Shown: one piece after another, positions 3,251 to 64,000 of the stretch | Layout: each line of letters opens with the position of its first letter | Numbering within the stretch: the first letter of the stretch is position 1 | From: Squalus acanthias | Lineage: Eukaryota | Assembly: GCA_030390025.1 (NCBI GenBank) | Contig: CM059435.1 | Coordinates: 39,866,001 to 39,930,000 of the forward strand | Direction: 5' to 3' | DNA length: 64,000 bases | Notes under the pieces: generated by a model | Database searches by the model: none | What the model was told of the DNA's origin: nothing | What the model saw: the letters and a program-made list of their open reading frames with translations, nothing else | Translations under genes and position numbers: made by a program

Positions 3251-3877
3251 ATACTATGAGCAAAGAATGTTTTCATACCATGGTAGTACTATGGTAACTA
3301 TGGTAACTACTATTAAACCTAATTTTCAAAAATGTCCTCATTTTTATATTAGGACTTGGTCGCTAAATTACAGTAATATGTTTTGCCTTTCTCCAATGTT
3401 CTTTTTCAAGTCATGAAACTTTTTCTTCACTTTCTTTCATTTTCAGCTCCTCATACTTGTGAAGCCCAACATACTGTCTAGAAGATGTACGTGTGTCACA
3501 TCAAAAACGTCCTTTCGTTTATCTATGACACGGTCTACTGGGACCTCCAAAGCCTGCAGTGAAATGGTATCAATTAAGTGGCACATTAGCTACTTGACAA
3601 ATGTGAAAGAAGCATTATTACAGATGAATCTCAATTGGTTGCCTTTCTGTTGTTCCCATTAGTGAGATCAGGATGACAGAAATAGGCAACAACAAAATTA
3701 CCTGCCACTTTGGTTGGCAATCCGAAAATTCTACAACCATAGGGATGTAGAAATCCTTCTCATGAAAAGTTCAAAATGTACCCCGAGCTCTGCTTGAGCA
3801 CAATTTGAAATTAAAGGGATTACTTCAAAAGTGTAATGCACACCTGGTGTAAAGAAGGGTGATGAGGCTGATCCCTA

Positions 3878-4144
3878 GGCCCCGATTTTAACTGCAGGTG
3901 GATTCCCCGCTCAGGCCTGAGTTAAAATTACAGTCGGGTCTCAATGATGTCATCGGGCCGCAACATGCATATGTAAAGAAGGACCCTGTTGGCTCTGGGC
4001 GCGTGTCCTTGCTGCCTGCTCAGGAGAGCGGGTTAAAATTGCAGATGTTGCGATCATGGCGGCTTTCAGACAGGTAAGAGCCAGGCCGATTTTAACTGTC
4101 CACCCGCCAGGTTTCTGCTGTGCGAGTAGGGTTAAAATTGGCCC
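3878..4144. mobile_element. Harbinger-type MITE
   Basis: Imperfect TIRs ggccccgattttaac / gttaaaattggccc, 3-bp TSD cta (3875-3877, 4145-4147), internal reiterated gttaaaat motifs, CpG-rich. Confidence 0.75.
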
Positions 4145-4149
4145 CTAGT

Positions 4150-5230
4150 GTCAGAGGACTAAGTTTGAGAAATGTTTAGAAACACTCGAATTCTTCACCT
4201 TGAAAAGAGGTGTATGAAAGTTGGTCTTGTGGAAATATATAGGGGGAAAGATTCGGTTGCTTTGCGCCTCCCGTTAGCGCCCTACGAAATTGACCAGACA
4301 TTTTGCGGCGGCGCTAAACACTACCGCCACAATCTCCTGTGCCCGCAGATCGTGACGTCAGTCGAGCGTGCAATGCCCTGGACTGGATATTGAGTGGCGC
4401 CCCCTGCCTTACCGCCTGCCGCTAACAACGACAAGTTGAGGGGAGCGTTTTGCTGTCGGGAAGGGACTGGGGGAGCGCTATTTAAAGGCGACCGCTTCCT
4501 GCCTTTTTTTGTCGGAGACATTTTTGCACCACGCATTCTGAGAGAGATAGAGAGACTTCTGGAGAGATTCAACACTGTGTGAAGGAGTTTTGGGTACTGA
4601 GCAGCACTTTGCAGGTTCATTTGGATTTGACCTTCCTTGCATCGATTTAGAAGAGACTATGGGGGCTGCACTCTGAGCTCTTTCCCTGGGCCTCTCCATT
4701 GTTCTTTCCAGCAGATTTGATGTACAGGTCTCTCCAGGCCGAGATTCAAGGCTGCAATGAGCAGGGTGTGGATGGAGAGCAAGATCGACTCTCCCCTTTA
4801 AGAACTGGCCAGCGCCAGTGTGTCTGTGTTCCATTGCTGACTGACATCACATGAGCTTCGCCAGCGCTCTGAGGTAGCGCCTCGCTCCTCGGCGTTAGCG
4901 CCTTAAGAGAGGTGTGTAGCGCCTGATTTAGCGCTCCAATCACCTCCAGGGGCGATAGAAGCCAAGTTTGCAGTCGGAGGTGAAAATTAGCGGCCGGCGC
5001 TAAACTTTGCGCCGGCCGATAATTGCGCCCCAAATGGGGCGATACCGAATTTCTCCCCCATAAGGTACTAATGGAATAGAAAAGGTCAACTTTAAGCATA
5101 ATTTGAAGTTAAATCATGGACAAGAATATATAAGCACAAACTGGTAAAAGACAAGTTTGGGAAACACTTGTTCACATGAACAGTGATAAATGCTTGGAAA
5201 GATCTTCCAGGTAGAGTAGTGGAGCCCCAT
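4150..5230 (+). mobile_element. Old CR1 LINE 3' fragment split by the Harbinger insertion at 4242-5059
   Basis: Removing the insert and one TSD copy restores gaa ata tat aag gta cta (EIYKVL) after LEKRCMKVGLV, the CR1 ORF2 C-terminal LEKRRLRGDLIEVYKIL motif. Confidence 0.7.
4242..5059 (+). mobile_element. Non-autonomous Harbinger-type element, copy 1 (818 bp)
   Basis: TIRs gggggaaagattcggt / accgaatttctccccc, 3-bp TSD ata (4239-4241, 5060-5062), CpG-rich subterminal regions; homologous in opposite orientation to 62837-63728. Confidence 0.85.
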
Positions 5231-18249: not shown

Positions 18250-18450
18250 AGGGTGCGCGTGCATGTGAACGTGATGGGTTGTCGGGAGCGCGCTGGGCGT
18301 GAGAGCGCGGGCACGGTGTCAATCCTTAAAGCGCGCGCGGGGAGGGAGAGAGAGGGGGACACGTGACGCCGGGAGGGGGGAGCGCGAGGCGGTGCGAGCG
18401 CTGGAGCATTATCGGCGGAATATAACACGGCAAAGGGAGCAGCGAGCAAC
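18250..18450 (+). promoter_or_regulatory. CpG-island promoter, probably of ZNF217
   Basis: The densest CpG stretch outside transposons; E-box CACGTG at 18360-18365, G-rich boxes, TATA-like tataa at 18421-18425, followed by 5' splice sites and upstream of the + strand coding exons. Confidence 0.75.
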
Positions 18451-18487
18451 TGCACGGAGCCTGCACCTATAGCACAGGCAGCGCAAG
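18450..18487 (+). other. ZNF217: Putative non-coding exon 1 of ZNF217 (start approximate; alternative donor after 18594)
   Basis: Begins ~25-30 nt after the TATA-like box; donor AAG|gtagga at 18487/18488, second donor CAG|gttagt at 18594/18595; no ATG in the short form. Confidence 0.55.
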
Positions 18488-28440: not shown

Positions 28441-30234
28441 GATTGTTGCAGATATCAAATGCATGTAATTATAATGAGCTGTGGAGTCCCACATATTCTT
28501 TAATATACAAAATTAATATGGAGAGTATACTTATTGTAGGGATTGTGAGAGCTCTACATACCTGAGTTATGATTTGTGAGTTGCAGATGGCCATTTGCAC
28601 TATAGTGCAATAGTGATTTTTTTTTTTAGCCTAGATTTCAAAATTGCTTAGTCTTGTGCTGATTTCCTGTTTGTGTATTTGATGACTTTGAGTAATTGCA
28701 ATGGTATTATGTTGCAATGTGTAATCGGTGTAATGATTCATGCGTATATCATGGGTGCAAATATTGATGTGCTAGTCTAGATGATCGCATATTTATGGAT
28801 GTCATTCTCATTATAGTATGGTGTATAAAGTATGAGGGTGTGGCACAAGCATGTCTAACCAGTCCTGTGTTTTTAATTTTAAAAGGTATTTGATGCCTGT
28901 TAGGGAACATCATGGATGCACAGCTCTGAAGTTAACTCAACCCTGAGTACTGATGGAAATTGAATAGAGTCCAGAATTTAAATCGGTAAGTCTTGATATA
29001 CTAGGTCGGAAAAAAACAATTCACCTGTACTGTTTTCTCTCCAGTGGTTGGTGATTTTTAGTCAAATCAAGTCTAGCCTAGTCTGTGTATCTGCATTTAT
29101 GCCACCCTTGGTTTGACTTGCGAGGAAGTGCACTTGAGGTACAGGAAGGAATTCATTTATTTCCTTCTTTCTCCCATCATACACACCCCAAGTAATTTAT
29201 TGAGGCTTGCAAACTTGCGACAGAAGGGAAGCAGACGTGTAAACAGCAGTTACATCTGACTTTGAGCTTGGAGATTCTAGTTGAGGGTCTGATACTTGAA
29301 ACAAGATATTGGTGAGGTTGGTCAGCTACCGAAGGTATAACTTGCAATCTTTGGTAAAACTAATTTTAAAGTTGTCCAATATTTTTCAGTCTTTCAGCAT
29401 ACAATACTACTTGTAGTCGAACCACTCGCTGAGGTGTTCAAACATGGTGCTGCATGTGTTTCTAGCTTCTATCCACAGCTTGCCAGCTTTTGGATGTTGC
29501 TGAAGCCAGTGATATGAGAGAGGTTCTGGGGGTTGTGGTCTTGACAAAAAGTGAGAGTAACCCTGATGTGTACAGTGTGATTTTGCAAATTCCAGCCTTT
29601 GACAGCTGAAGAGTCAGCAGGAAGAATGGGTACAATTTAGAGATTTCTAGTATGTTAACAAGATTTCCGATATACTGTTACATGGCGTACCAGCAGAAGT
29701 GACTTTGGTGTACCTCACCCTTTCTTAGGAAACTAGAATACCAGGAAGTTTGAGGCCTGAATGCTCAAATCAGTATGCAGAGTATCTTTCTGAAGACACC
29801 GCTATTCTTAGAACTTTGCTAAATAAGTCAGTCCTGCTCGGTTTTATAATTGCTTTTGATTTCTTTAGGATGCTCAGTGGGAGTTCTTAATGGGCCTCTG
29901 TCTTCAAGACTGAACAGAATGTCATATTTTCAAAATGGCAGTGTTCATGTATAGAAACCAATTGATATTGCACCTAGAAATCTTTGTACCTGACAATTTA
30001 TATTTTATTTGAAATAAATATATTGCTGAGAAGTGTTACTGACTCCTCCCTAGTGCATCTTGGTCCTTTTTTTTTGATTGGAGCACTGTACTATAATCTA
30101 GACTGGGCTAGCTCCTTTTGCTGTCTGGCTAGAGGATGGCCTGATGCTAGTGGCATCCATGATTGAAGTTTCAGGAACAGAAAAAGATCATGTGGCCTGA
30201 AAAGCCACTTCCTTTGGTAGAAGCATGATTTTGT

Positions 30235-40700: not shown

Positions 40701-41374
40701 AACTGTCACTGCAAGGCTACCAAAAGGAAAGGCACGGATGCTTCTGATTTTAGTGTAGTTGCCAATTTACATGAATGCCGCAGCAAAATACAAATGTTTA
40801 TACAGATGGACAAAATAGAACCGACTGCAATTTCAATCAAACATTGGAAGTGGGTTCAAGTCCTTCTCTGATGTGATGCTAGTGTTCTAGCTTTTTTTGG
40901 AAAGGGGGAATATTTCTAAAGACCACACATGTCTCTTTTTACAGTAATGTTTTTTTTCCAGGCCTTTGGAAAAGCTTGCTCATTTCTGGATTAGCAATGA
41001 TGTGGAATAATATTGTACAGTAGGACTGCTTAATGTACAGTCAGCAGAACTTATTTAGTATTCTGATGGAAGTGGGTGGATGTGTTTTGCCAGATATAAA
41101 ATATGCAATTCTACAGAAAGAACAGTGGCTTATTTTGAAACTTTTAAGTACAGCACCAGTATGTTGCAACAAAATAATAATGGGCTGTGTGGTAAACTTG
41201 GCACAACCACAAGTACCACCTGCTGCACAAAGCACTTTGTGTGCAGCTAGGTTCCAACAGTACCAGCACAAATTAATCTATGATGTGTGATTAAAGAAAT
41301 ATGACTGCAGTTCATCCCTCTCCCTCTCCCTCTCCCTTCTACAGTAGTGCTATATTTCCACATGCAGAATAGTA

Positions 41375-41736
41375 CAGGAAACTCTTTATTAACCGGCACT
41401 GACCGGACCGGCGTGGTGCCGGTTAATCAAAAAGTCCGGATAATGGAGAGTTATATCTCCCAACGTAAGAGGGCCCCGTACACATTGACATGCGCCTGCA
41501 TTCGGAGCTCCGTCTCCCCGGGGACCGCCAGCTGACCATCTGTCGTGTCCGCTGCCTACCCGGGCTGCACACTCCCCTCCCAATCTACACGCTCCGATAC
41601 AAGGCAAACGCCTCGGTTTTTTTTTTAAAGTTAATTTTAAACGAGAGATGACGGAAAACCCCGGTTACCTACTCAAGAATTTTGCCGGTTAAGAGAGATT
41701 TCCGGATATTTGGGTGCCGGTTAATAGAGTTTCCTG
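41375..41736. mobile_element. Tc1/mariner (pogo/Tigger-like) MITE, 362 bp
   Basis: TIRs caggaaactctttattaaccggcac / gtgccggttaatagagtttcctg, TA on both sides (41373-41374, 41737-41738), subterminal ccggttaa repeats. Confidence 0.9.
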
Positions 41737-41870
41737 TACTCTGATTTAAAATGAATGTGTTTGCCTTGCTTCAAGATTTTCCACCAGAGGCCTGTAGCAC
41801 TGTATGTGTAATACTCAAATCTTCAGTTTGCAGCACAGAAAATACCTCCAGCCGAGATTCTTCAGGCCCA

Positions 41871-42314
41871 GTGTCGGCTGTGGTTCAGTTAGTACCACCC
41901 TCGCCTCCGAGTCAGAAGGTTGTGGGTTCAAGTCCCACTCCAGAGACTTGAGCACAAAAATCCAATGCAGTACTGCTGCACTGTCGGAGGTGCCGTCTTT
42001 CGGATGAGATGTTAAACCGAGGCCCTGTCTCAGGTGGATGTAAAAGATCCTATGGCACTATTCCAAAGAAGAGCAGGGGAGTTATCCCCGGTGTGTTGGC
42101 CAATATTTATCCCTCAATCAACATCTAAAAAAACAGATTATCTGGTTATTATCACATTGCTGTTTATGGGAGCTTGCTGTGTGCGAATTGGTTGCTGCAT
42201 TTCCTACATTACAACAGTGACTACACTTCAGAAAGTACTTCATTGGCTGTAAAGCACTTTGGGACGTCTGGCGGTTGTGAAAGGTGCTATCTAAATGCAA
42301 GCCTTTTTCTTTTT
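41871..42314 (+). mobile_element. DeuSINE (SacSINE1/AmnSINE1-like), near full-length
   Basis: tRNA-like head (gtggttcagttag, ggttcaagtcc), Deu-like core ggtggatgtaaaagatcctatggcacta...tggccaatatttatccctca, L2-type tail gtaaagcactttggga...tgctatctaaatgcaag. Confidence 0.9.
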
Positions 42315-43089
42315 CTGAAGATTGTTTTCTCCACTATTCAGGCAGCAGAGATCAGAAATGCCACAGTGCTCTAAATTAGCAGATCGCTTTCTTATTTTAA
42401 AGTATAAGTGTACATGTGGATAGTAGTGTAACTTATTTTTTTGTGGGTTATTTGCCCGAATTAAGTTTCTTGGAGGAAAAACCTCTCAACCATGGGGTTT
42501 CAAGTTAGGGACTCATTGAGTTTCTGTATATTTCTTTTATTTGCTGTACTACTAGTATTTTTGTCTGCTAATGTAAAGTGACAATGGGGCTAAACATAAA
42601 GAAAACTTGGGAAAAGTGAGTTTTTTAAAAAGGAAGTAAATGGGGAAACTCAATATTTAGACTGGTAATTTGAAAATGTTATTCAAAAATGGTTTCAGCA
42701 ATATTAACACTGTTTACTTTTGGGTAGCTGCCCTTCTCTTGGACAGGGATCTCCAGAATGTCTCCATATTTGCAGGCAATCTCCCATACATAAGTTTGCA
42801 CACCACTATTTGTAAATGTTTTGAGTTTCATATTTGCTTTTTAAAAAAAAAAAGCTTTCACTTTTTTTCCCTTTTAACCCCATTTTCAGTTTAGATCAGC
42901 AGAAGAAGCAGGTCCTTCTTTCATACAGTAATAATGGTCAGGCTACAAAATTCCTGACCAACACCTGCTGAATAACGTACGGTGCTTTTTACATTCAAGC
43001 AGTTGCATAGTTCTCTCATTGTTGCTGGTACTCCTTTTTATTAAAAAAAAATATATAAATGATGATCTGCAGGGAACCAATGGCCTGCA

Positions 43090-45841: not shown

Positions 45842-46312
45842 GATAAGTCCAAAGGAAAAATGGAGTCAGACTACCAGGTCTCCAGTTTAGCAGAAACAAC
45901 TGTGCATAGAAGTGAATGTTTACTAGGTTTCGAACTGGGGCTGTCTTTGATGAGGCCTGCCAAAGAGTAACTTGGTTTGGATTTTCTAATCTTATTGTTC
46001 TTTATGTCCCTGACATTTACATTGCAGTGGAAAGTAGTTATACAAATTTGTGCAAAGTATCTTGTTTTGAATTGGAACTTTTTTTTACCATCCATAGTTA
46101 TTTTTAGCACTGAAGCATATTGTTTAAACAATCAGTTTTTTTGTTGCACAATATATTAACGGTTTAAATAGTTTTAATCTTATTTTGAATGCTCTGTATT
46201 CTATTTTCAGCAATTGAAACCCCTGCATCTGTAAGTACAAGGACACAAGAAAAGCAAGCTTTTGAGATTGAAATTGAAACTCTAAAGCTTTGTATTGTCT
46301 CAAAATAATGTG

Positions 46313-46858
46313 ATGAGAATACAATATCAAGACGACCAGGAAAGAACATCTGAAGAAGAGCTTATGCCTTGGTTTACTGACCAGCCTACTCATGAATTTG
46401 TGATGAAATCTACTGAGAGCTCCATAATGAAAACATCTGAGGATGTCAAAGAAGAAAATGTGAACTTAACACTTGGTGATTTTTCTGATGCAAAAAATTC
46501 TATTGAACACCATTGTTCAATTTGTGACCAGTGCTTTCCTTTCAGTAGCCTTTTAGCACAACACATGCACATGCATACAAATGAAAAGCCATTTAAGTGT
46601 CCCTTTTGTGACCATAGAACGTCCCAGAAATCAAATTTGAAAATTCATCTTCGAAAGCACAAACTAGACCATTTGCAACAAGGAAGAAAAACTGGAAGAA
46701 ATAAGGCCAATCTGTCACCTACAAGCTTTGATTGCCCAAATACTTTGTCTAATAGCATCAGTCCTAATGATGCTGAAATGACTGAGACTGATCAGCCAAT
46801 AAATGGTGTTGCTTTGTCTTTTGACAGGTTTGGAAGGAAATGTTGCAGTCCAAGCTGA
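46313..46858 (+). CDS. ZNF217: ZNF217 first coding exon, 5' reading frame: two ZNF516-like C2H2 fingers plus linker; exon acceptor at 46210/46211
   Basis: Acceptor ctattttcag|caattg; first in-frame ATG at 46313; CSICDQCFPFSSLLAQHMHMH-TNEKPF-KCPFCDHRTSQKSNLKIHLRKH (46514-46660); this frame stops at 46856-46858, out of frame with the downstream ORF. Confidence 0.75.
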   Translation: MRIQYQDDQERTSEEELMPWFTDQPTHEFVMKSTESSIMKTSEDVKEENVNLTLGDFSDAKNSIEHHCSICDQCFPFSSLLAQHMHMHTNEKPFKCPFCDHRTSQKSNLKIHLRKHKLDHLQQGRKTGRNKANLSPTSFDCPNTLSNSISPNDAEMTETDQPINGVALSFDRFGRKCCSPS

Positions 46859-48090
46859 AGAATGTCCACCTCTGCCTTGTATGTTTTGTAATAAAGGCTT
46901 TCGACACTCAGAAGAACTCCGTCACCATGTAGTGATTCAGCACAGGCCTACGTTATGTGAGCCCGCGGTCCTCCAGGTGGAGGAAGGGTTGAGTCCTATC
47001 GAAGAGGCGCATATTACAGCAAGTTCTCCAGAACAAGAGGCAAATGATGAAAACGAAGATGGTGAGCTCAGCTGTAAAGTTTGTGGACTGTCCTGCGAGA
47101 GTGCTTTGAGTCTGGAAACACACATGAGGAAACACAAGGATTCATTTACCTATGGTTGTAATGTATGTGGCCGACGTTTTAAGGAGCCTTGGTTTCTAAA
47201 AAACCATATGCGAACGCATGCGAGTAAAGCTAGGGGCAAATCTCAGCAGGATTTGGAAGGTCCTGCAACTATCAATAATGTTGCTATGCAAGAACCAATT
47301 TCAGGAAACGTTGCCTCTCCTTACAAAATGTGCATGGTTTGTGGATTTCTTTTCCCGAATAAAGACAGCTTGAAAGAACATAGTAAAGTTCACAACAAAG
47401 ATCTCACCGATGATGATAGAATGGACGATTACTCCTTAAATCAGGAAGTTGCGATCTCGCAGGAAGCATTCCTGCAGATGCTGAATTTAAATCCCCTCTT
47501 GTCACACAATTGTAACAAGCCTGTGAAGCTGGGAAAATGGATATCTGAACTTGATCCTTTCAATACGTACCAAGCTTGGCAGCTGGCTACTAAGGGAAAA
47601 GTGGCAGTTGGCCGAGAGAATGTGAAAGATCCAGGGCAAATGGCAAACTCTGAGAATGAAGAGGAACCTTCTGACAAAGAGGATTCCAGTGAGCATTGGA
47701 CCATAGAGAAAGGCAATCATGGACCTACCTTGGAGAACCTAGAAAAGTCTAAAATCAAAAACAGCAGTCTAGGCCAGAATGGACTGCCTCCTATGGGAGA
47801 TGTGGACATTGACCCGAAATTGACCCAGAATAAACTTAAACCGACCAACTGCGCAATGTGTGGTAAGATTTTTAGAACCTACCATCAGTTAGTGCTCCAC
47901 TCCCGAGTACACAGGAAAGGCAGGAAAAGTGTGGAGAATCCTCCAAATTCAGTTGATGGCAGTGAAGCTGGCACTCAATCCATAGACTCCGTTACAGCAG
48001 TTGAAGACCATAGCCCAGGAGCTGACAAACCTGAGGAGGGCTCTGAAGAGGGCTCAGAAGATGGAGTACTAGGAGAAGGACTTTCATCAG
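46803..48090 (+). CDS. ZNF217: ZNF217 first coding exon, 3' reading frame (fingers equivalent to human ZF1-ZF5)
   Basis: QHRPTLCEPAVLQVE, HKDSFTYGCNVCGRRFKEPWFLKNHMRTH, SPYKMCMVCGFLFPNK, LDPFNTYQAWQLATKGKVA and CGKIFRTYHQLVLHSRVH match human ZNF217 as recalled; donor CAG|gtagga at 48090/48091, phase 1. Confidence 0.95.
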
Positions 48091-48338
48091 GTAGGAAGGT
48101 TATAAACCTATTGGGATGCTTGGGTCTAATGCTCTTTTACATTTCTTGCCAACTCTCAATTTTCAGAATTTGAAAATACTTTGTCTTCGATAAGAATCTG
48201 TGCAAACTTCTGCCACAGTATCTCAAGATAGAAGAGCCCAAATTTTTGGTGATCCTATTGTCAAATTTAGTAGCCTTCCAAAAAAAAATTGTCTTCCCTA
48301 GTCCTTTTTAAGGTTTGAAAGTGTACACCTAGAAAGAA

Positions 48339-48550
48339 TGCCATGATGTGGAGATGCCGGTGTTGGACTGGGGTGGACAAATGTGAGAAGTCGCACAACA
48401 CCAGGTTATAGTCCAACAGTTTTATTTGAAATCTCAAGCTTTCGGAGCGCTGCTCCTTCGTCAGGTGAAGCGTGACGAAGGAGCAGCGCTCCGAAAGCTT
48501 GTGATTTCAAATAAAACTGTTTGACTATAACCTGGTGTTGTGCGACTTCT
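48339..48550. mobile_element. Young Penelope-like foldback insertion (second family) with 13-bp TSD
   Basis: TSD cacctagaaagaa at 48326-48338 and 48551-48563; 81-bp inverted arms 48383-48463 / 48473-48553 with 2 mismatches; hammerhead core in each arm. Confidence 0.85.
48432..48468 (-). ncRNA. Minimal type I hammerhead ribozyme motif (Penelope-type)
   Basis: Minus strand: ucac CUGACGA A GGAGC agc GCUCC GAAA GC UU gaga; palindromic AAGCUU helix III; one mismatch in helix I. Confidence 0.7.
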
Positions 48551-49122
48551 CACCTAGAAAGAAGTGGTTTCTTGCTAAAATGTGCAATTGGATTCTCTCC
48601 AATTAATGCATGTCTTGAGGGATAGTGGGTAGTGGTTAAAACGAATGTGAAGCTTACTTTTTTTTTGCTAAGCAGTGAGAATATTGGGCTACAATATTTA
48701 AAAGGTTTCATTAAATCTCAGATTCTTAGACTCCTGTTTGGTTACTTATGTGCCAATGTATTTGAAATATATAGCAATAAGCACCAGGAATTGCAGTGGA
48801 GTATATTGTCTTAAGACTGTTAAAACAAAAAACATTTTTGTGACACATTAAGCACTTTTGTGTTCTTGGCTTCTAACATTATGCAAATATTCATAAGTGA
48901 TTAACACACACTTCACTTAGAAATCATATTCCATTACAGGTTTTAATTGGTTTGCCTGTGCCTGATGTCTGAGGAAGGGTCCAAGCCATTTGATTCAAAT
49001 ACATTTTGTGGGTTTTGATCAAATGTGAATTTGACAGACTATTTAAATATGTTTGGTCCTGGTAACTTTTTTTTAAAGTATTTATCAAGCTGTCTTGCTT
49101 AAATCAGTTTAAAAATTGCTTC

Positions 49123-49650
49123 CATATAGGAACAGCAGTAGGCCCTTGAGCCCCTCGAGCCTGTTTCGCCATTCAATGAGATCATGGCTGATCTGCGACC
49201 TAACTCCATATACCCGCCTTTGGCCCATATCCCATAATACCTTTTGGTTAACAAAAATCTATCAATCTCCGATTTAAAATTAACAATTGATCTAGCATCA
49301 ATTGCTGTTTGTGGAAGAGAGTTCCAAACTTCTACCACCCTTTGTGTGTAGAAGTGTTTCCTAATTTCACTCTTGAAAGGTCTGGCTCCAATTTTAAGAC
49401 TATGCCCCCTACTCAGAAGCCCCAACCAGCGGAAATAGCTTCTCTCTATCTACCCTATCCGTTCCCCTTAATATCTTAAACTTCGATCAGATCACCCCTT
49501 AACCTTCTAAATTCTAGGGAATGCAATGCTAATTTGTGTAATCTCTCCTCTTAACTTAACCCTTGAAGTCTGGGTATCATTCTGGTAAACCCACGCTGCA
49601 CTCCCTCCAAGGCCAATATATCCTTCCTAGAACTGCTCCCAGTACTCCGT
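49123..49650 (-). mobile_element. CR1 LINE 3' fragment
   Basis: RGHSLKIGARPFKSEIRKHFYTQRVVEVWNSLP (CR1 ORF2 C-terminus) plus 3' tail. Confidence 0.92.
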
Positions 49651-54084: not shown

Positions 54085-54288
<204 letters not shown>

Positions 54289-55284: not shown

Positions 55285-56983
55285 CAATGGAAATGGCAGA
55301 TCAATTAACTACATACTTTGGTTCTGTCGTCACAAAGGAGGACACAAATAAACTCCGAGATGTCGGGGAACATAGGGTCTAATGAGAGGGAGGAATTGAA
55401 TGAAATCAGTATTTGTAGGGAAATTGACGGGATTGAAGGCCGATAAATCCCCAGGGCCTGATAATCTACATCCTAGGGTACTTAAGGAAGTGGCCCTAGA
55501 AATAGTAGATGCATTGCTGGTCATCTTTCAAAATTCTATAGACTGTGGAACAGTTCCCATTGATTGGGGGGTAGCTAATGTAACCCCACTATTTAAAAAA
55601 GGTGGTAGAGAAAAAACGGGGAATTAAGCCTGACATCGGTAGTGGGCAAAATGCTAGAGTCCATTATAAAAGATGTAATAGCAGAGCACTTGGAAAACAG
55701 TGACAGGACAAAGTCAACATGGATTTACAAAAGGTAAATCATGCCTGACTAATCTACTGGAATTTTTTGAGGATGTAACTGGTAGAATAGATAAGGGAGA
55801 ACCAGTGGATATGGTGTATTTGGACTTTCAGAAGGCTTTCGATAAGGTCCCGCATAAGAGATTAGCGTGCAAAGTTAAAGCACATGGGATTGGGGGTAAG
55901 GTACTGATTTGGATAGAGAACTGGTTGGCAGACAGGAAGCAAAGAGTTGGAATAAACGGGTCTTTTTCCGAGTGGCAGGCTGTGACTAGTGGGGTACCGC
56001 AGGGATCGGTACTAGGACCCCAGCTATTCACAATATATATTAATGATCTAGACGAGGGAACTAGATGTAATATCTCCAAGTTTGCAGATGACACAAAGCT
56101 GGGTGGGCGTGTGTGCTGTGAGGAGGATGCAGAGAAACTCCAGTATGATTTGGACAAGTTGGGTGATTGGGCAGATGCAGTATAATGTGGATAAATGCGA
56201 GGTTATCCACTTTGGTGGCAAAAACTGGAAGACATTATTAACTGAACAGCAATAGATTGGGAAAAGGGGAAGTGCAACGAGATCTGGGAGTCCTTGTGCA
56301 CCAGTCGCTGAAGGTAAGCATGCAGGTGCAGCAGGCGGTTAAGAAGGCAAATGGTATGTTGGCCTTCATAGCGAGAGGATTCGAGTACAGGAGCAGGGAT
56401 GTCTTGCTGCAGTTGTACAAGGCCTTGGTGAGACCACACCTTGAGTATTGTGTGCAGTTTTGGTTGCCTTATCTGAGGAAGGATGTTCTTGCCATGGAGG
56501 GAGTGCAGCGAAGATTTACCAGACTGATACCTGGGATGGCAGGAATGACGTATGAAGAGAGATTGGGTCGATTAGGCTTATATTCGCTAGAGTTTAGAAG
56601 AATGAGCGGGGATCTCATTGAAACTTATAAAATTCTAACAGGACTAGACAGACTAGATGCAGGAAGGATGTTCCCGATGGCGGGGAAGTCCAGAACCAGG
56701 GGTCACAGTCTAAGGATAAGGGGTAAGCCATTTAGGACTGAGATGAGGAGGAATTTCTTCACCCAGAGAGTGGTGAACCTGTGGAATTCTCTACCACAGA
56801 AGGCAGTTGAGGCCAATTCATTAAATATATTCAAGAAGGAGTTAGATATATTTCTTGAGGCTAAAGGGATATGGGGAGAAAGCAGGGACAGGGTACTGAA
56901 TTTGGATGATCAGCCATGATCTCATTAAATGGCGGAGCAGGCTCAAGGGGCCGAATGGCCTACTCCTGCTCCTATCTTCTATG
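55285..56983 (+). mobile_element. Young 5'-truncated CR1 LINE (RT domain, few frameshifts)
   Basis: [88 protein letters not shown]; 3' tail gaatggcctactcctgctcctatcttctatg. Confidence 0.97.
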
Positions 56984-60538: not shown

Positions 60539-62260
60539 GTGAAAAACCCCATAGATGTCCTCTCTGTGATTATGCTGCAGCTCAAAAGACCTCACTTAAA
60601 TATCACTTGGAGCGACACCACAAGGGTGAGCAGAAAAAGGCTGAAGAAAAGAGTGATCCTCTGAAGAGTTCATTGGCATCTCCGAAATTGGAAGTCGTAC
60701 CAAAAGGAAGTGATGAATCTGTTCAGGAATCTGTGGACTCGAAGAAGTTGATTACAGATTCTTTGGGCAGTGCCAAAGATTTAGATGCAGACTTTCCTCG
60801 GAGGAAACTCAAATCTACTCATTCTTCTCGTCCAATTTTTCAAAATGTTATGTTTTCAAATATGAATAGACCGTTCCCAGACTTGAACAGGAATACTAGT
60901 TTTCATAACAATCGCCGGATCTTCTGTAATGCAGTGCTGCCATATCGTGAGAAATCAAAGGGTGAAAAGGTGGTGAGTGAGTTCCATAGGAGTGACTCTG
61001 ATCCAAAGGCGGTTATAGACCTAGACGATTCCAAGGTTTTGGAGCAATGTTTAATGGAAGAACTGTCAGAAGATGGTGTGCAACAGAATAATGCTAGAAG
61101 CATAAAGTTGGAACCTGCTTCAATAAATGACCAATGCTACGTTAGTGCTAGAGGTAATATGGAGGACTACTGTGATAAATTTGAATCCAGCTTATTGGAA
61201 AAGCCCTTGAATCTCTGCACCACAATATATCAGCAAAGCCTGTGTAGTGGTGGTAGTCCTCGGGGAAATGCATCTACCTCAGTTTCCAAGAGTGCCTTAC
61301 TGAGCAACACGTGTCCATTTTGTACTTACAGAACTTTGTACCCAGAGGTCTTAGTGATGCACCAAAGGTTGGTACACAAATATAATCCTGACCCAAGCCC
61401 AATAAATGGAGTTCGAAGTGCTGTTCGTGGTGGGTCAATTAAAAGCAGACGCACTGGATGCCCTCCTGCACTATTAGGTCAAGATGTTTCTTCTTTGCTT
61501 GCCACCAAAGAAATGAACAGAAAGTTTTCTCGTCGGACCAGGTCACCACTACCAGCAGCTTCACCAGATGCTTCAAACATGCTGCTTGGGAAGGCAAAAT
61601 CACCATCATCACACCAATCTCTGTGCAATAATCTCCTTCCCTCTGCAGCAGGATCTAGATCTTCAGGCGAATTTAAAGCATTCAAGGCTACCCAAAATCC
61701 TAATGTACATCTAGAAAACTATGGATCCATACATACTGAACTTAGACAGATGCCAGATGTGGTGCAAAAAATGGAAAGAAGTGAATCCTCAGAGGCTGGT
61801 AATAGTAAGAGAAATATGTCGGAAAGGCCTGGTATTAAGTTGGACTACGAATCTGATGGACCTAGGGGACCTTTGTTTAGATATGATAGTCTTTGGGCGC
61901 CAAATGTTAGCAAAATGTGTCTTACTAATGTGTCAGAGAATCAGGGAGGCTTGGACTCGCATGAGCCTACAGCTAAAAGAATGAAAGTAAACAGTCCTTT
62001 AAGAAACGATCAGCTTACATTTGGAACAAGGAGGAGTGTCCAAGGAAGAAATGTAAAATTATTATCTCAGGAGATGTCCCCTGTTCAGTCAAGAAACTCC
62101 GGGGTATCGTCTAAGCCAGAATCCGCCTTGGATTCAAATGGAGTTGACTCGCATTGGAATGTATTGAAAATTTTGAAGTCCTACAACCCGCAAGATCTTG
62201 CTTCACTGTATAGTACTTGTGGACCCAGTAATAGTAGAGATCCTAATATTGGTCAAGAAG
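60539..62260 (+). CDS. ZNF217: ZNF217 large coding exon (human ZF7 and ZF8 equivalents, CtBP-binding motifs); gene continues beyond window
   Basis: Acceptor ttttcgcttcag|gt; GEKPHRCPLCDYAAAQKTSLKYHLERHH, EKPLNL, TCPFCTYRTLYPEVLVMHQRLVHKYNPD, RRTGCPPALLG; donor AAG|gtaggt at 62260/62261 after EG. Confidence 0.95.
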
Positions 62261-62836: not shown

Positions 62837-63329
62837 GGGGGAGAAATTCAGTATCTCCCCATTTGGGGCGCAATTATCGGCCGGGCGCAAAGATTAGCGC
62901 CTGGCGCTAATTATCGCCACCGACTGCAAACTTGACTTTTATTGCCCCTGAAGGTGATTGGAGCACTAAATCAGGCGCTTAACACCTGTCTTAAGGCGCA
63001 AAGGCAGAGGAGCGAGGCGCTACCTCAGAGCGCTGGCGAAGCTCATGTGATGTCAGTCAGCAATGGAACACACACACAATGGCGCGGGGCAGTTCTTAAA
63101 GGGGAGGGTTGATCTTGCTTTCCATCCACACCCTGCTCATTGCAGCCTTGAATCTCTGCCTGGGGAGATCTGCTGGAAAGAACAATGGAGAGTACTAGGA
63201 AAAGAGCTCAGAGTGCAGCCCCCACAGTCTCTTCTAAATCGATACAAGGAAGGGCAAATCAAAATGAACCTGCAAAGTGCTGCTCAGTACCCAAAACTCC
63301 TTCACACAGCGTTGAATCTCTCCAGAAGT

Positions 63330-63381
<52 letters not shown>

Positions 63382-63728
63382 GAATACGTAGTTCAAAAAT
63401 GTCACCAACAATAAAAGGCAGGAAGCGGTTGCCTTTAAATAGCACTCCCCCAGTCCCTTCCTGACTGCAAAATGCTCCCCTCAACCTGTCGTTGCTAGCG
63501 GCAGGCGGTAAGGCAGGGGGCGCCACTCAATATCTGCTCTGGGGCGTTGCGCACTTGACTGACGTCACGATCTGCCGGCGCAGGAGATCGTGGCGGTAGT
63601 GTTTAGCGCCGCCGCAAAATGTTTAGTTAATTTCGCGAGCGGCAAAAACATCGCCGCGTCCGGGCGCTAGATGCTTTGCGCCCTCTTAAGGCGCTAACGG
63701 GAGGTGCAACCAACTGAATTTTTCCCCC
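62837..63728 (-). mobile_element. Non-autonomous Harbinger-type element, copy 2 (892 bp)
   Basis: TIRs gggggagaaattcagt / actgaatttttccccc, TSD att (62834-62836, 63729-63731); reverse-complement homologue of 4242-5059. Confidence 0.88.
63333..63378. repeat. (CT)n microsatellite inside Harbinger copy 2
   Basis: Directly visible. Confidence 0.95.
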
Positions 63729-64000
63729 ATTGTGTTTAATCAGAGTTTAAGATGGAATATAACATGCTAGTTATACAGCAAAAACATACAACTGTGACAA
63801 GCAGCTGGTGCTGGTACCGGTCCCGATCGGACAGATGGCTGGCGTGCGTGAACAGTTATCTGGCTTGCGGCCTTTCTTCTCGTCTAGAACCTCCGATGGT
63901 GAGCGTGGGATCACTCTCGAAAGAGCGTTCGACCAGCCTAACTTCTGCTTGGCTCTTCCCTCCACCGTCTGTGTGCACAAGCACTCGGTGTTACTTTTAT

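Follow-up and report, generated by a model that had tools for sequence, protein, structure and literature searches.

A single-base frame break in the first coding exon of a Squalus acanthias ZNF217 gene is most likely not a real feature of the organism

The window analysed here, a stretch of 64,000 nucleotides from Squalus acanthias, carries on its forward strand a gene which the earlier note named ZNF217, a name that holds since both halves of its interrupted first coding exon match ZNF217 orthologues. As judged from its sequence, the gene is an otherwise intact ZNF217 orthologue with a predicted product of 1,244 amino acids (aa) and ten C2H2 fingers. The first coding exon (46211..48090, +), delimited by the contigs of four sequence runs (X3, X9, X5 and X12) and by AG and GT ends, is 1,880 nt long in the assembly and 1,879 nt long in the runs. 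Its likely start codon is the ATG at 46313..46315 (+), which is where 8 of 12 elasmobranch gene models begin; three begin at the next ATG (46364) and one further upstream. Fingers 1 and 2 of the ten form an N-terminal C2H2 pair encoded at 46514..46660 (+), based on a Pfam C2H2 match at residues 81-117 and on finger patterns at residues 68 and 96. A non-coding exon of 100 nt with AG and GT ends lies upstream at 28886..28985 (+) and is spliced to 46211, as indicated by the loose ends of two contigs (X5 and X12); the position of its 5' edge was deduced from the acceptor sequence and from how long the X9 contig is. Beyond this exon, 139 further letters are present in the X3 contig and 105 in the X5 contig. 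Further upstream, a CpG-rich region at about 18280-18487 that ends at a GT donor (18488) is a candidate promoter and first exon.

Downstream of the interrupted exon, a second coding exon of 126 nt (54137..54262, +) is placed by a tblastn match of 98% to the sawshark protein P0003, by loose ends of the X9, X5 and X12 contigs and by its splice ends, and a third coding exon of 1,722 nt with an open frame (60539..62260, +) is placed by a tblastn match of 92% to P0003 in one frame. Joined, the three coding exons within the window form an uninterrupted frame of 1,208 aa that contains ten finger patterns. The last coding exon, of 36 codons, lies beyond the window at L002 7633-7742 and brings the total to 1,244 aa. 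Apart from the frame break, no lesion was found in the gene model. Residues 606-660 of P0003 match chain C of PDB 3uk3, a solved fragment of ZNF217 (3e-26), and this finger pair presumably binds DNA. P0003 also has the PXDLS-like and RRT motifs found in the alligator and lemur proteins, and both motifs are encoded in the window's third coding exon. These are described as the motifs by which ZNF217 recruits CtBP, and ZNF217 as a C2H2 repressor which bridges to CtBP/LSD1/CoREST (PMC5612949). Elsewhere in the window, CpG-enriched intervals with an observed/expected ratio of 0.6-1.1 occur at 3501-5000, 41001-42500 and 63001-64000, and a very high-copy repeat starts at 48340 (48340-48400). Two intronic ORFs, at 49099-49449 (-) and 55682-56185 (+), resemble reverse-transcriptase fragments of LINE retroelements.

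In the assembled first coding exon, ORF1 runs from the ATG at 46313 to a TGA at 46856-46858 and encodes 181 aa with two C2H2 fingers. ORF2, which is closed upstream by a TAA at 46800-46802, has its ATG at 46803 and is in frame +1 relative to ORF1; it continues past the splice donor at 48090/48091 and, as a genomic ORF, stops at 48173. Two overlapping ORFs offset by +1 are present in the window just as the earlier note described them. A tblastn comparison with the window places residues 1-168 of P0003 in one frame and residues 167-591 in the next, with two further exons downstream, and a genome search found a single match for this stretch of the exon in its own genome. The ORF1 and ORF2 proteins were absent from a 15-billion collection by exact look-up, a weak result as such genes may never have been called.

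A search with ORF1 among longer proteins gave 12 ZNF217 proteins of sharks and rays, of 1,106-1,312 aa. ORF1 and ORF2 fall within a single chain in every one of them, which bears out the proposal that the two ORFs are one coding sequence. The top 13 matches of ORF1 include 11 that are named ZNF217 and a 12th that is unnamed with the same alignment. Callorhinchus models P0090 and P0091 stand outside the 12, since their N-termini are not alignable and lack the N-terminal fingers, and are uninformative on chimaeras. Removing A46826 makes the junction residues the same as those of P0003 (ALSFDGLEGNV), and the resulting model is free of stops and has 93.4% identity with P0003 across 1,208 aa; identity to the Heptranchias protein is 90.8%, and identities to four orthologues are 86-93%. 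When single-base removals were scored against the 12 orthologues, that of 46826 was the best against the closest orthologue (251, versus 238 for the T-run at 46819-46822), and its mean score over the 12 was within 0.3 of the top, a scoring which by itself cannot separate positions 46825-46828. The earlier note had suggested deleting a T from 46819-46822. The break it described is present in the assembly, but the superfluous letter is not one of these Ts: their removal opens the frame yet scores below removal of 46826, and it is contradicted by the sequence runs, all seven of which lack A46826 where they cover the site. Three of the orthologue models (P0005, P0004 and P0009 in alignment A1) contain duplications. 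In Pristis, about 65 aa spanning this junction region are duplicated in tandem, and the Mustelus and Scyliorhinus models have a common 9-aa duplication before finger 7; the duplications in the three genera may be real or made by assembly.

Independent sequence was available from 24 public runs that contain the exon. Eight of the 24 were compared and seven cover 46826, representing seven samples, five studies and four organism labels; the eighth (X6), a large DNA-like set of which about 55% was read, had no cover at this position. In all seven covering runs (X1, X3, X9, X5, X12, X14 and X17), the A at 46826..46826 (+) is the one base missing at the site, and each run has one long contig across it, with depths of 3.5, 30, 72, 26, 123, 20 and 8, the depth of 3.5 for X1 being under the tool's caution level. 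For organisms A and B, two or three other letters distinguish each contig from the window over about 1.9-2.4 kb, so they come from the same or a sister species. These near-identical animals furnish independent data of the kind in which a consensus indel should be absent, and A46826 is missing from 5/5 of their runs. Runs X14 and X17, which are DNA-like and come from two other organisms, diverge further from the window, at 41 and 64 other letters, and also lack the base. The runs were seen as contigs, which drop rare variants and may collapse a heterozygous site, and none is known to be from the assembled animal. The earlier note held that a continuous ORF one base shorter, in reads or in orthologues, would make the break an assembly error or a private mutation, and such sequences were found in the contigs of 7/7 covering runs and in 12/12 shark and ray proteins. 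No frame break was seen outside this assembly in the seven covering runs and the 12 orthologous proteins.

A few other letters vary among these contigs. G47220 (Ala) is common to the organism-B runs X9 and X12 only, with T (Ser) in the other five, and is a real polymorphism. The low-depth X1 contig departs from the window at 48188 and, by one extra T, in the intronic T-run at 46078; either difference may be an error or an allele. A piece of 37-40 bases at 47568-47607 matches a second contig in X12, X14 and X17 whose flanks are unlike the window, and this contig likely derives from a paralogous gene with a conserved ELDP motif.

Four of the seven covering contigs appear to derive from transcripts. 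The X3, X5, X9 and X12 contigs span 46210-48090 in one piece and end at splice sites, the loose ends behind 48090 in X9, X5 and X12 are the first bases of the exon at 54137, and those of X5 and X12 on the upstream side are identical to 28955-28984, a match that none of 100 shuffles gave. Since they end at splice sites and continue into neighbouring exons, these contigs behave as spliced mRNA, a status judged by their spliced ends, as no listed run is recorded as RNA. A46826 is absent from all four. This bears directly on the possibility, raised in the earlier note, that a programmed +1/-2 ribosomal frameshift near UCU UUU GAC joins ORF1 to ORF2. All that speaks for such recoding is that the two frames overlap in the assembly. 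As the spliced RNA-like contigs lack the extra base, no frameshift is needed. Neither an offset in the mature mRNA nor a conserved offset or shift site in relatives was found: the base is missing from the X14 and X17 runs of other organisms as well, and 12/12 orthologues are continuous. A scan of 46780-46870 for XXXYYYZ heptamers, which would detect heptamer-type signals only, found none. For the animals sampled, recoding is refuted by the RNA-like contigs, and the probability left to it is minute.

It could also be supposed that splicing avoids the break, either through a small intron or through an alternative 5' exon joined at an acceptor before 46828, where a pyrimidine run is followed by ACAG|G. 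The assembled sequence at 46812-46827 does resemble an acceptor. Its AG is present only with the extra A, however, and all four RNA-like contigs cross the site with no joint and no loose end. The motif was rejected as an acceptor on these two grounds, and the chance that splicing circumvents the break is, if anything, more minute than that of recoding.

A bicistronic mRNA was the other biological arrangement considered in the earlier note, which envisaged a 181-aa two-finger protein followed by ZNF217 initiated at ATG 46803, as an intermediate on the way to the short mammalian protein. The ATG at 46803 has an A at -3 and a G at +4, and the two N-terminal fingers are missing in 104 of the 106 bony-vertebrate ZNF217 proteins among the matches listed. 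Against this, ATG 46803 falls within the codons for a conserved Asn-Gly in ORF1, and only the extra base places it in the ORF2 frame; moreover, finger 2 is fused in frame in two of the 106 listed rows, both caecilians. A bicistronic or dual-coding exon would be expected to have both frames constrained in the overlap, as the earlier note took to be the case, but one frame is conserved at each position, namely ORF1 to 46825 and ORF2 from 46827. Neither split ORF has conserved residues of its own, as the eight ORF2 residues before the break and the ten ORF1 residues after it are matched in 0/12 orthologues. The arrangement also requires the base in the transcript, from which it is absent in 4/4 RNA-like contigs. 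Finally, the bony-vertebrate start aligns not with ATG 46803 but with a position of the ORF1 frame some 30 codons ahead of the break, and the idea of the break as an intermediate toward the shorter mammalian form is not supported. Like the bypass by splicing, a bicistronic ZNF217 mRNA is hardly credible.

The frame break most likely does not belong to the biology of the organism, and what has to be explained is how A46826 came to be in the assembly. The reading preferred here is that A46826 is a residual consensus error with an ordinary ZNF217 gene beneath it, to which a probability of roughly 0.92 is assigned. The earlier note also considered an assembly indel the likeliest cause, and this is upheld by the absence of A46826 from 7/7 covering runs and by the continuity of 12/12 orthologues. 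The choice of an error over a variant carried by the assembled animal is inferred. Alternatively, A46826 could be a real 1-bp insertion private to the assembled animal, probably heterozygous, which would be a loss-of-function allele with its mRNA degraded by nonsense-mediated decay and would have been picked by chance for the haploid assembly. Homopolymers are the usual place of indel errors in some platforms, and A46826 lies outside a homopolymer, as a real insertion well might. Such an allele would be indistinguishable from an error without reads of the assembled animal itself. Moreover, A47723, a silent difference in a Gly codon which is T in 7/7 runs, is likewise exclusive to the window (0/7 runs), implying that private alleles occur in this exon or that there is a second error. 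On the other side, A46826 is absent in all five near-identical samples of organisms A and B, and the gene is strongly conserved, with 86-93% identity to four orthologues, and has no other lesion. No stable two-finger product is expected from such an allele. The premature TGA (46856..46858, +), which is reached only through the extra base, precedes the following exon junction by 1,232 nt, and under the 50-55-nt rule a stop that far upstream of a junction leads to decay of the mRNA, so a real insertion would make a null allele and not a two-protein device. A private allele is considered improbable, though far less so than recoding, splicing around the break or a bicistronic message.

With A46826 taken as a consensus error, the exon in the animal would be read straight through from ATG 46313 to give a 1,244-residue protein with ten C2H2 fingers. 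By extension from mammalian ZNF217, this protein is predicted to be a DNA-binding repressor to which CtBP is recruited via the PXDLS-like and RRT motifs. The extra base is of practical relevance for curation, as automatic annotation might call ZNF217 truncated, split or lost, or might invent a small intron at the false acceptor. Had the break been conserved and present in the mRNA, it would have added a vertebrate transcription factor to the rare examples of recoding, which the data oppose.

The modest biology that remains is comparative and concerns the apparent stepwise decay of a ZNF536-like finger pair and a candidate circular RNA. The earlier note was right that ZNF217 is shorter at the N-terminus in bony vertebrates. 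A query with residues 140-590 of P0003 gave 884 matches, and the best 120 of these, which were considered here, included 106 from bony vertebrates, mostly birds and reptiles with three from sturgeon or paddlefish and one from bichir; no teleost, coelacanth or lungfish is among the matches listed. Among these matches, 47-99 residues (median 59) precede the first shared finger in bony vertebrates, compared with 164-198 in sharks and rays. An MPT start motif is present in 104 of the 106 listed bony-vertebrate rows, and 104 of the 106 have no finger ahead of the first shared finger. In the caecilians Rhinatrema and Geotrypetes, one in-frame finger precedes the MPT-type start and aligns with shark finger 2, with pairwise E values of 3e-14 and 5e-16 over the N-terminal 110 aa. 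Within the elasmobranchs, loss of a cysteine has damaged finger 2 in 7 of 12 models; in the other 5 the finger is intact, as it is in the gene described here. Decay of the pair appears stepwise, with finger 2 damaged in 7/12 elasmobranchs, finger 2 alone present in two caecilians, and both fingers gone from the other listed bony vertebrates. Based on these alignments, which rest on automatic gene models, the N-terminal finger pair looks ancestral, and a displacement of the start codon likely accounts for its stepwise loss, in which the break at 46826 has no part. A search of open-licence papers found nothing on the finger history of ZNF217, ZNF516, ZNF536 and ZNF219, which does not show it to be unpublished.

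The candidate circle comes from the X9 contig (2,009 nt), in which 48093 is joined back to 46210, the short side of the joint being 33 letters long. The exon at 28886-28985 begins with the same three bases as 48091-48093, and a 30-base overlap plus 100 and 1,879 nt gives exactly 2,009 nt. The contig fits a back-splice from 48090 to 28886 that would form a two-exon circle of 1,979 nt, with the junction letters deduced from lengths, and this is probably, if by no means securely, its origin. Template switching or a tandem duplication would give the same joint and would look the same in X9. The joint is found in one of the four RNA-like runs and was unseen in X3, X5 and X12. When computed from ATG 46313, the frame of the circle meets a stop two codons past the junction, after 594 aa. 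Should the circle exist, there would be a slim chance that it is translated into a functional protein; the full reading, of a conserved, translated circle encoding a 594-residue, seven-finger protein, is improbable. Such a product would be without the C-terminal finger pair and the CtBP motifs, and might act as a natural dominant-negative after the pattern of circ-ZNF609. No ZNF217 circle was found in open-licence papers, supplementary circRNA catalogues aside, which does not show the circle to be unpublished; in PMC4306919, ZNF217 occurs only in a reference.

Several known systems resemble what is seen at this locus. According to PMC5387670, circ-ZNF609 is likewise a circle of a large first coding exon which keeps the start of the linear message and gains a stop on circularisation; the candidate described here differs in that it has two exons, is represented by one contig and has its junction inferred from lengths. 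The ZNF217 proteins of bony vertebrates among the matches listed have about 50% identity over residues 140-590 of P0003, with the 3uk3-like finger pair and the PXDLS-like and RRT motifs at like places. ZNF536, of whose family ZNF516 and ZNF219 are presumably further members, is a separate gene with only 35-40% identity in aligned blocks, while the N-terminal finger pair of the fish ZNF536-like protein P0023 is 55% identical over 60 aa to that of P0003. For the break itself, the nearest counterparts are residual indels in long-read assemblies. According to PMC8081667, frameshifting short indels are the commonest errors of CLR assemblies before polishing, and unpolished loci may persist. As in such cases, of which TLK1 is an example discussed there, A46826 is a single-base indel in a conserved coding exon that independent reads lack; it differs in lying outside a homopolymer. 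The closest relatives of the gene are the elasmobranch ZNF217 models of Pristiophorus japonicus (P0003), Heptranchias perlo (P0001), Heterodontus francisci (P0002) and nine more, in which the start region and the junction residues are as in the window. The closest three models have the same ten-finger layout, identities over 1,208 aa are 86-93%, and compared with all of the elasmobranch models the extra base is exclusive to this assembly.
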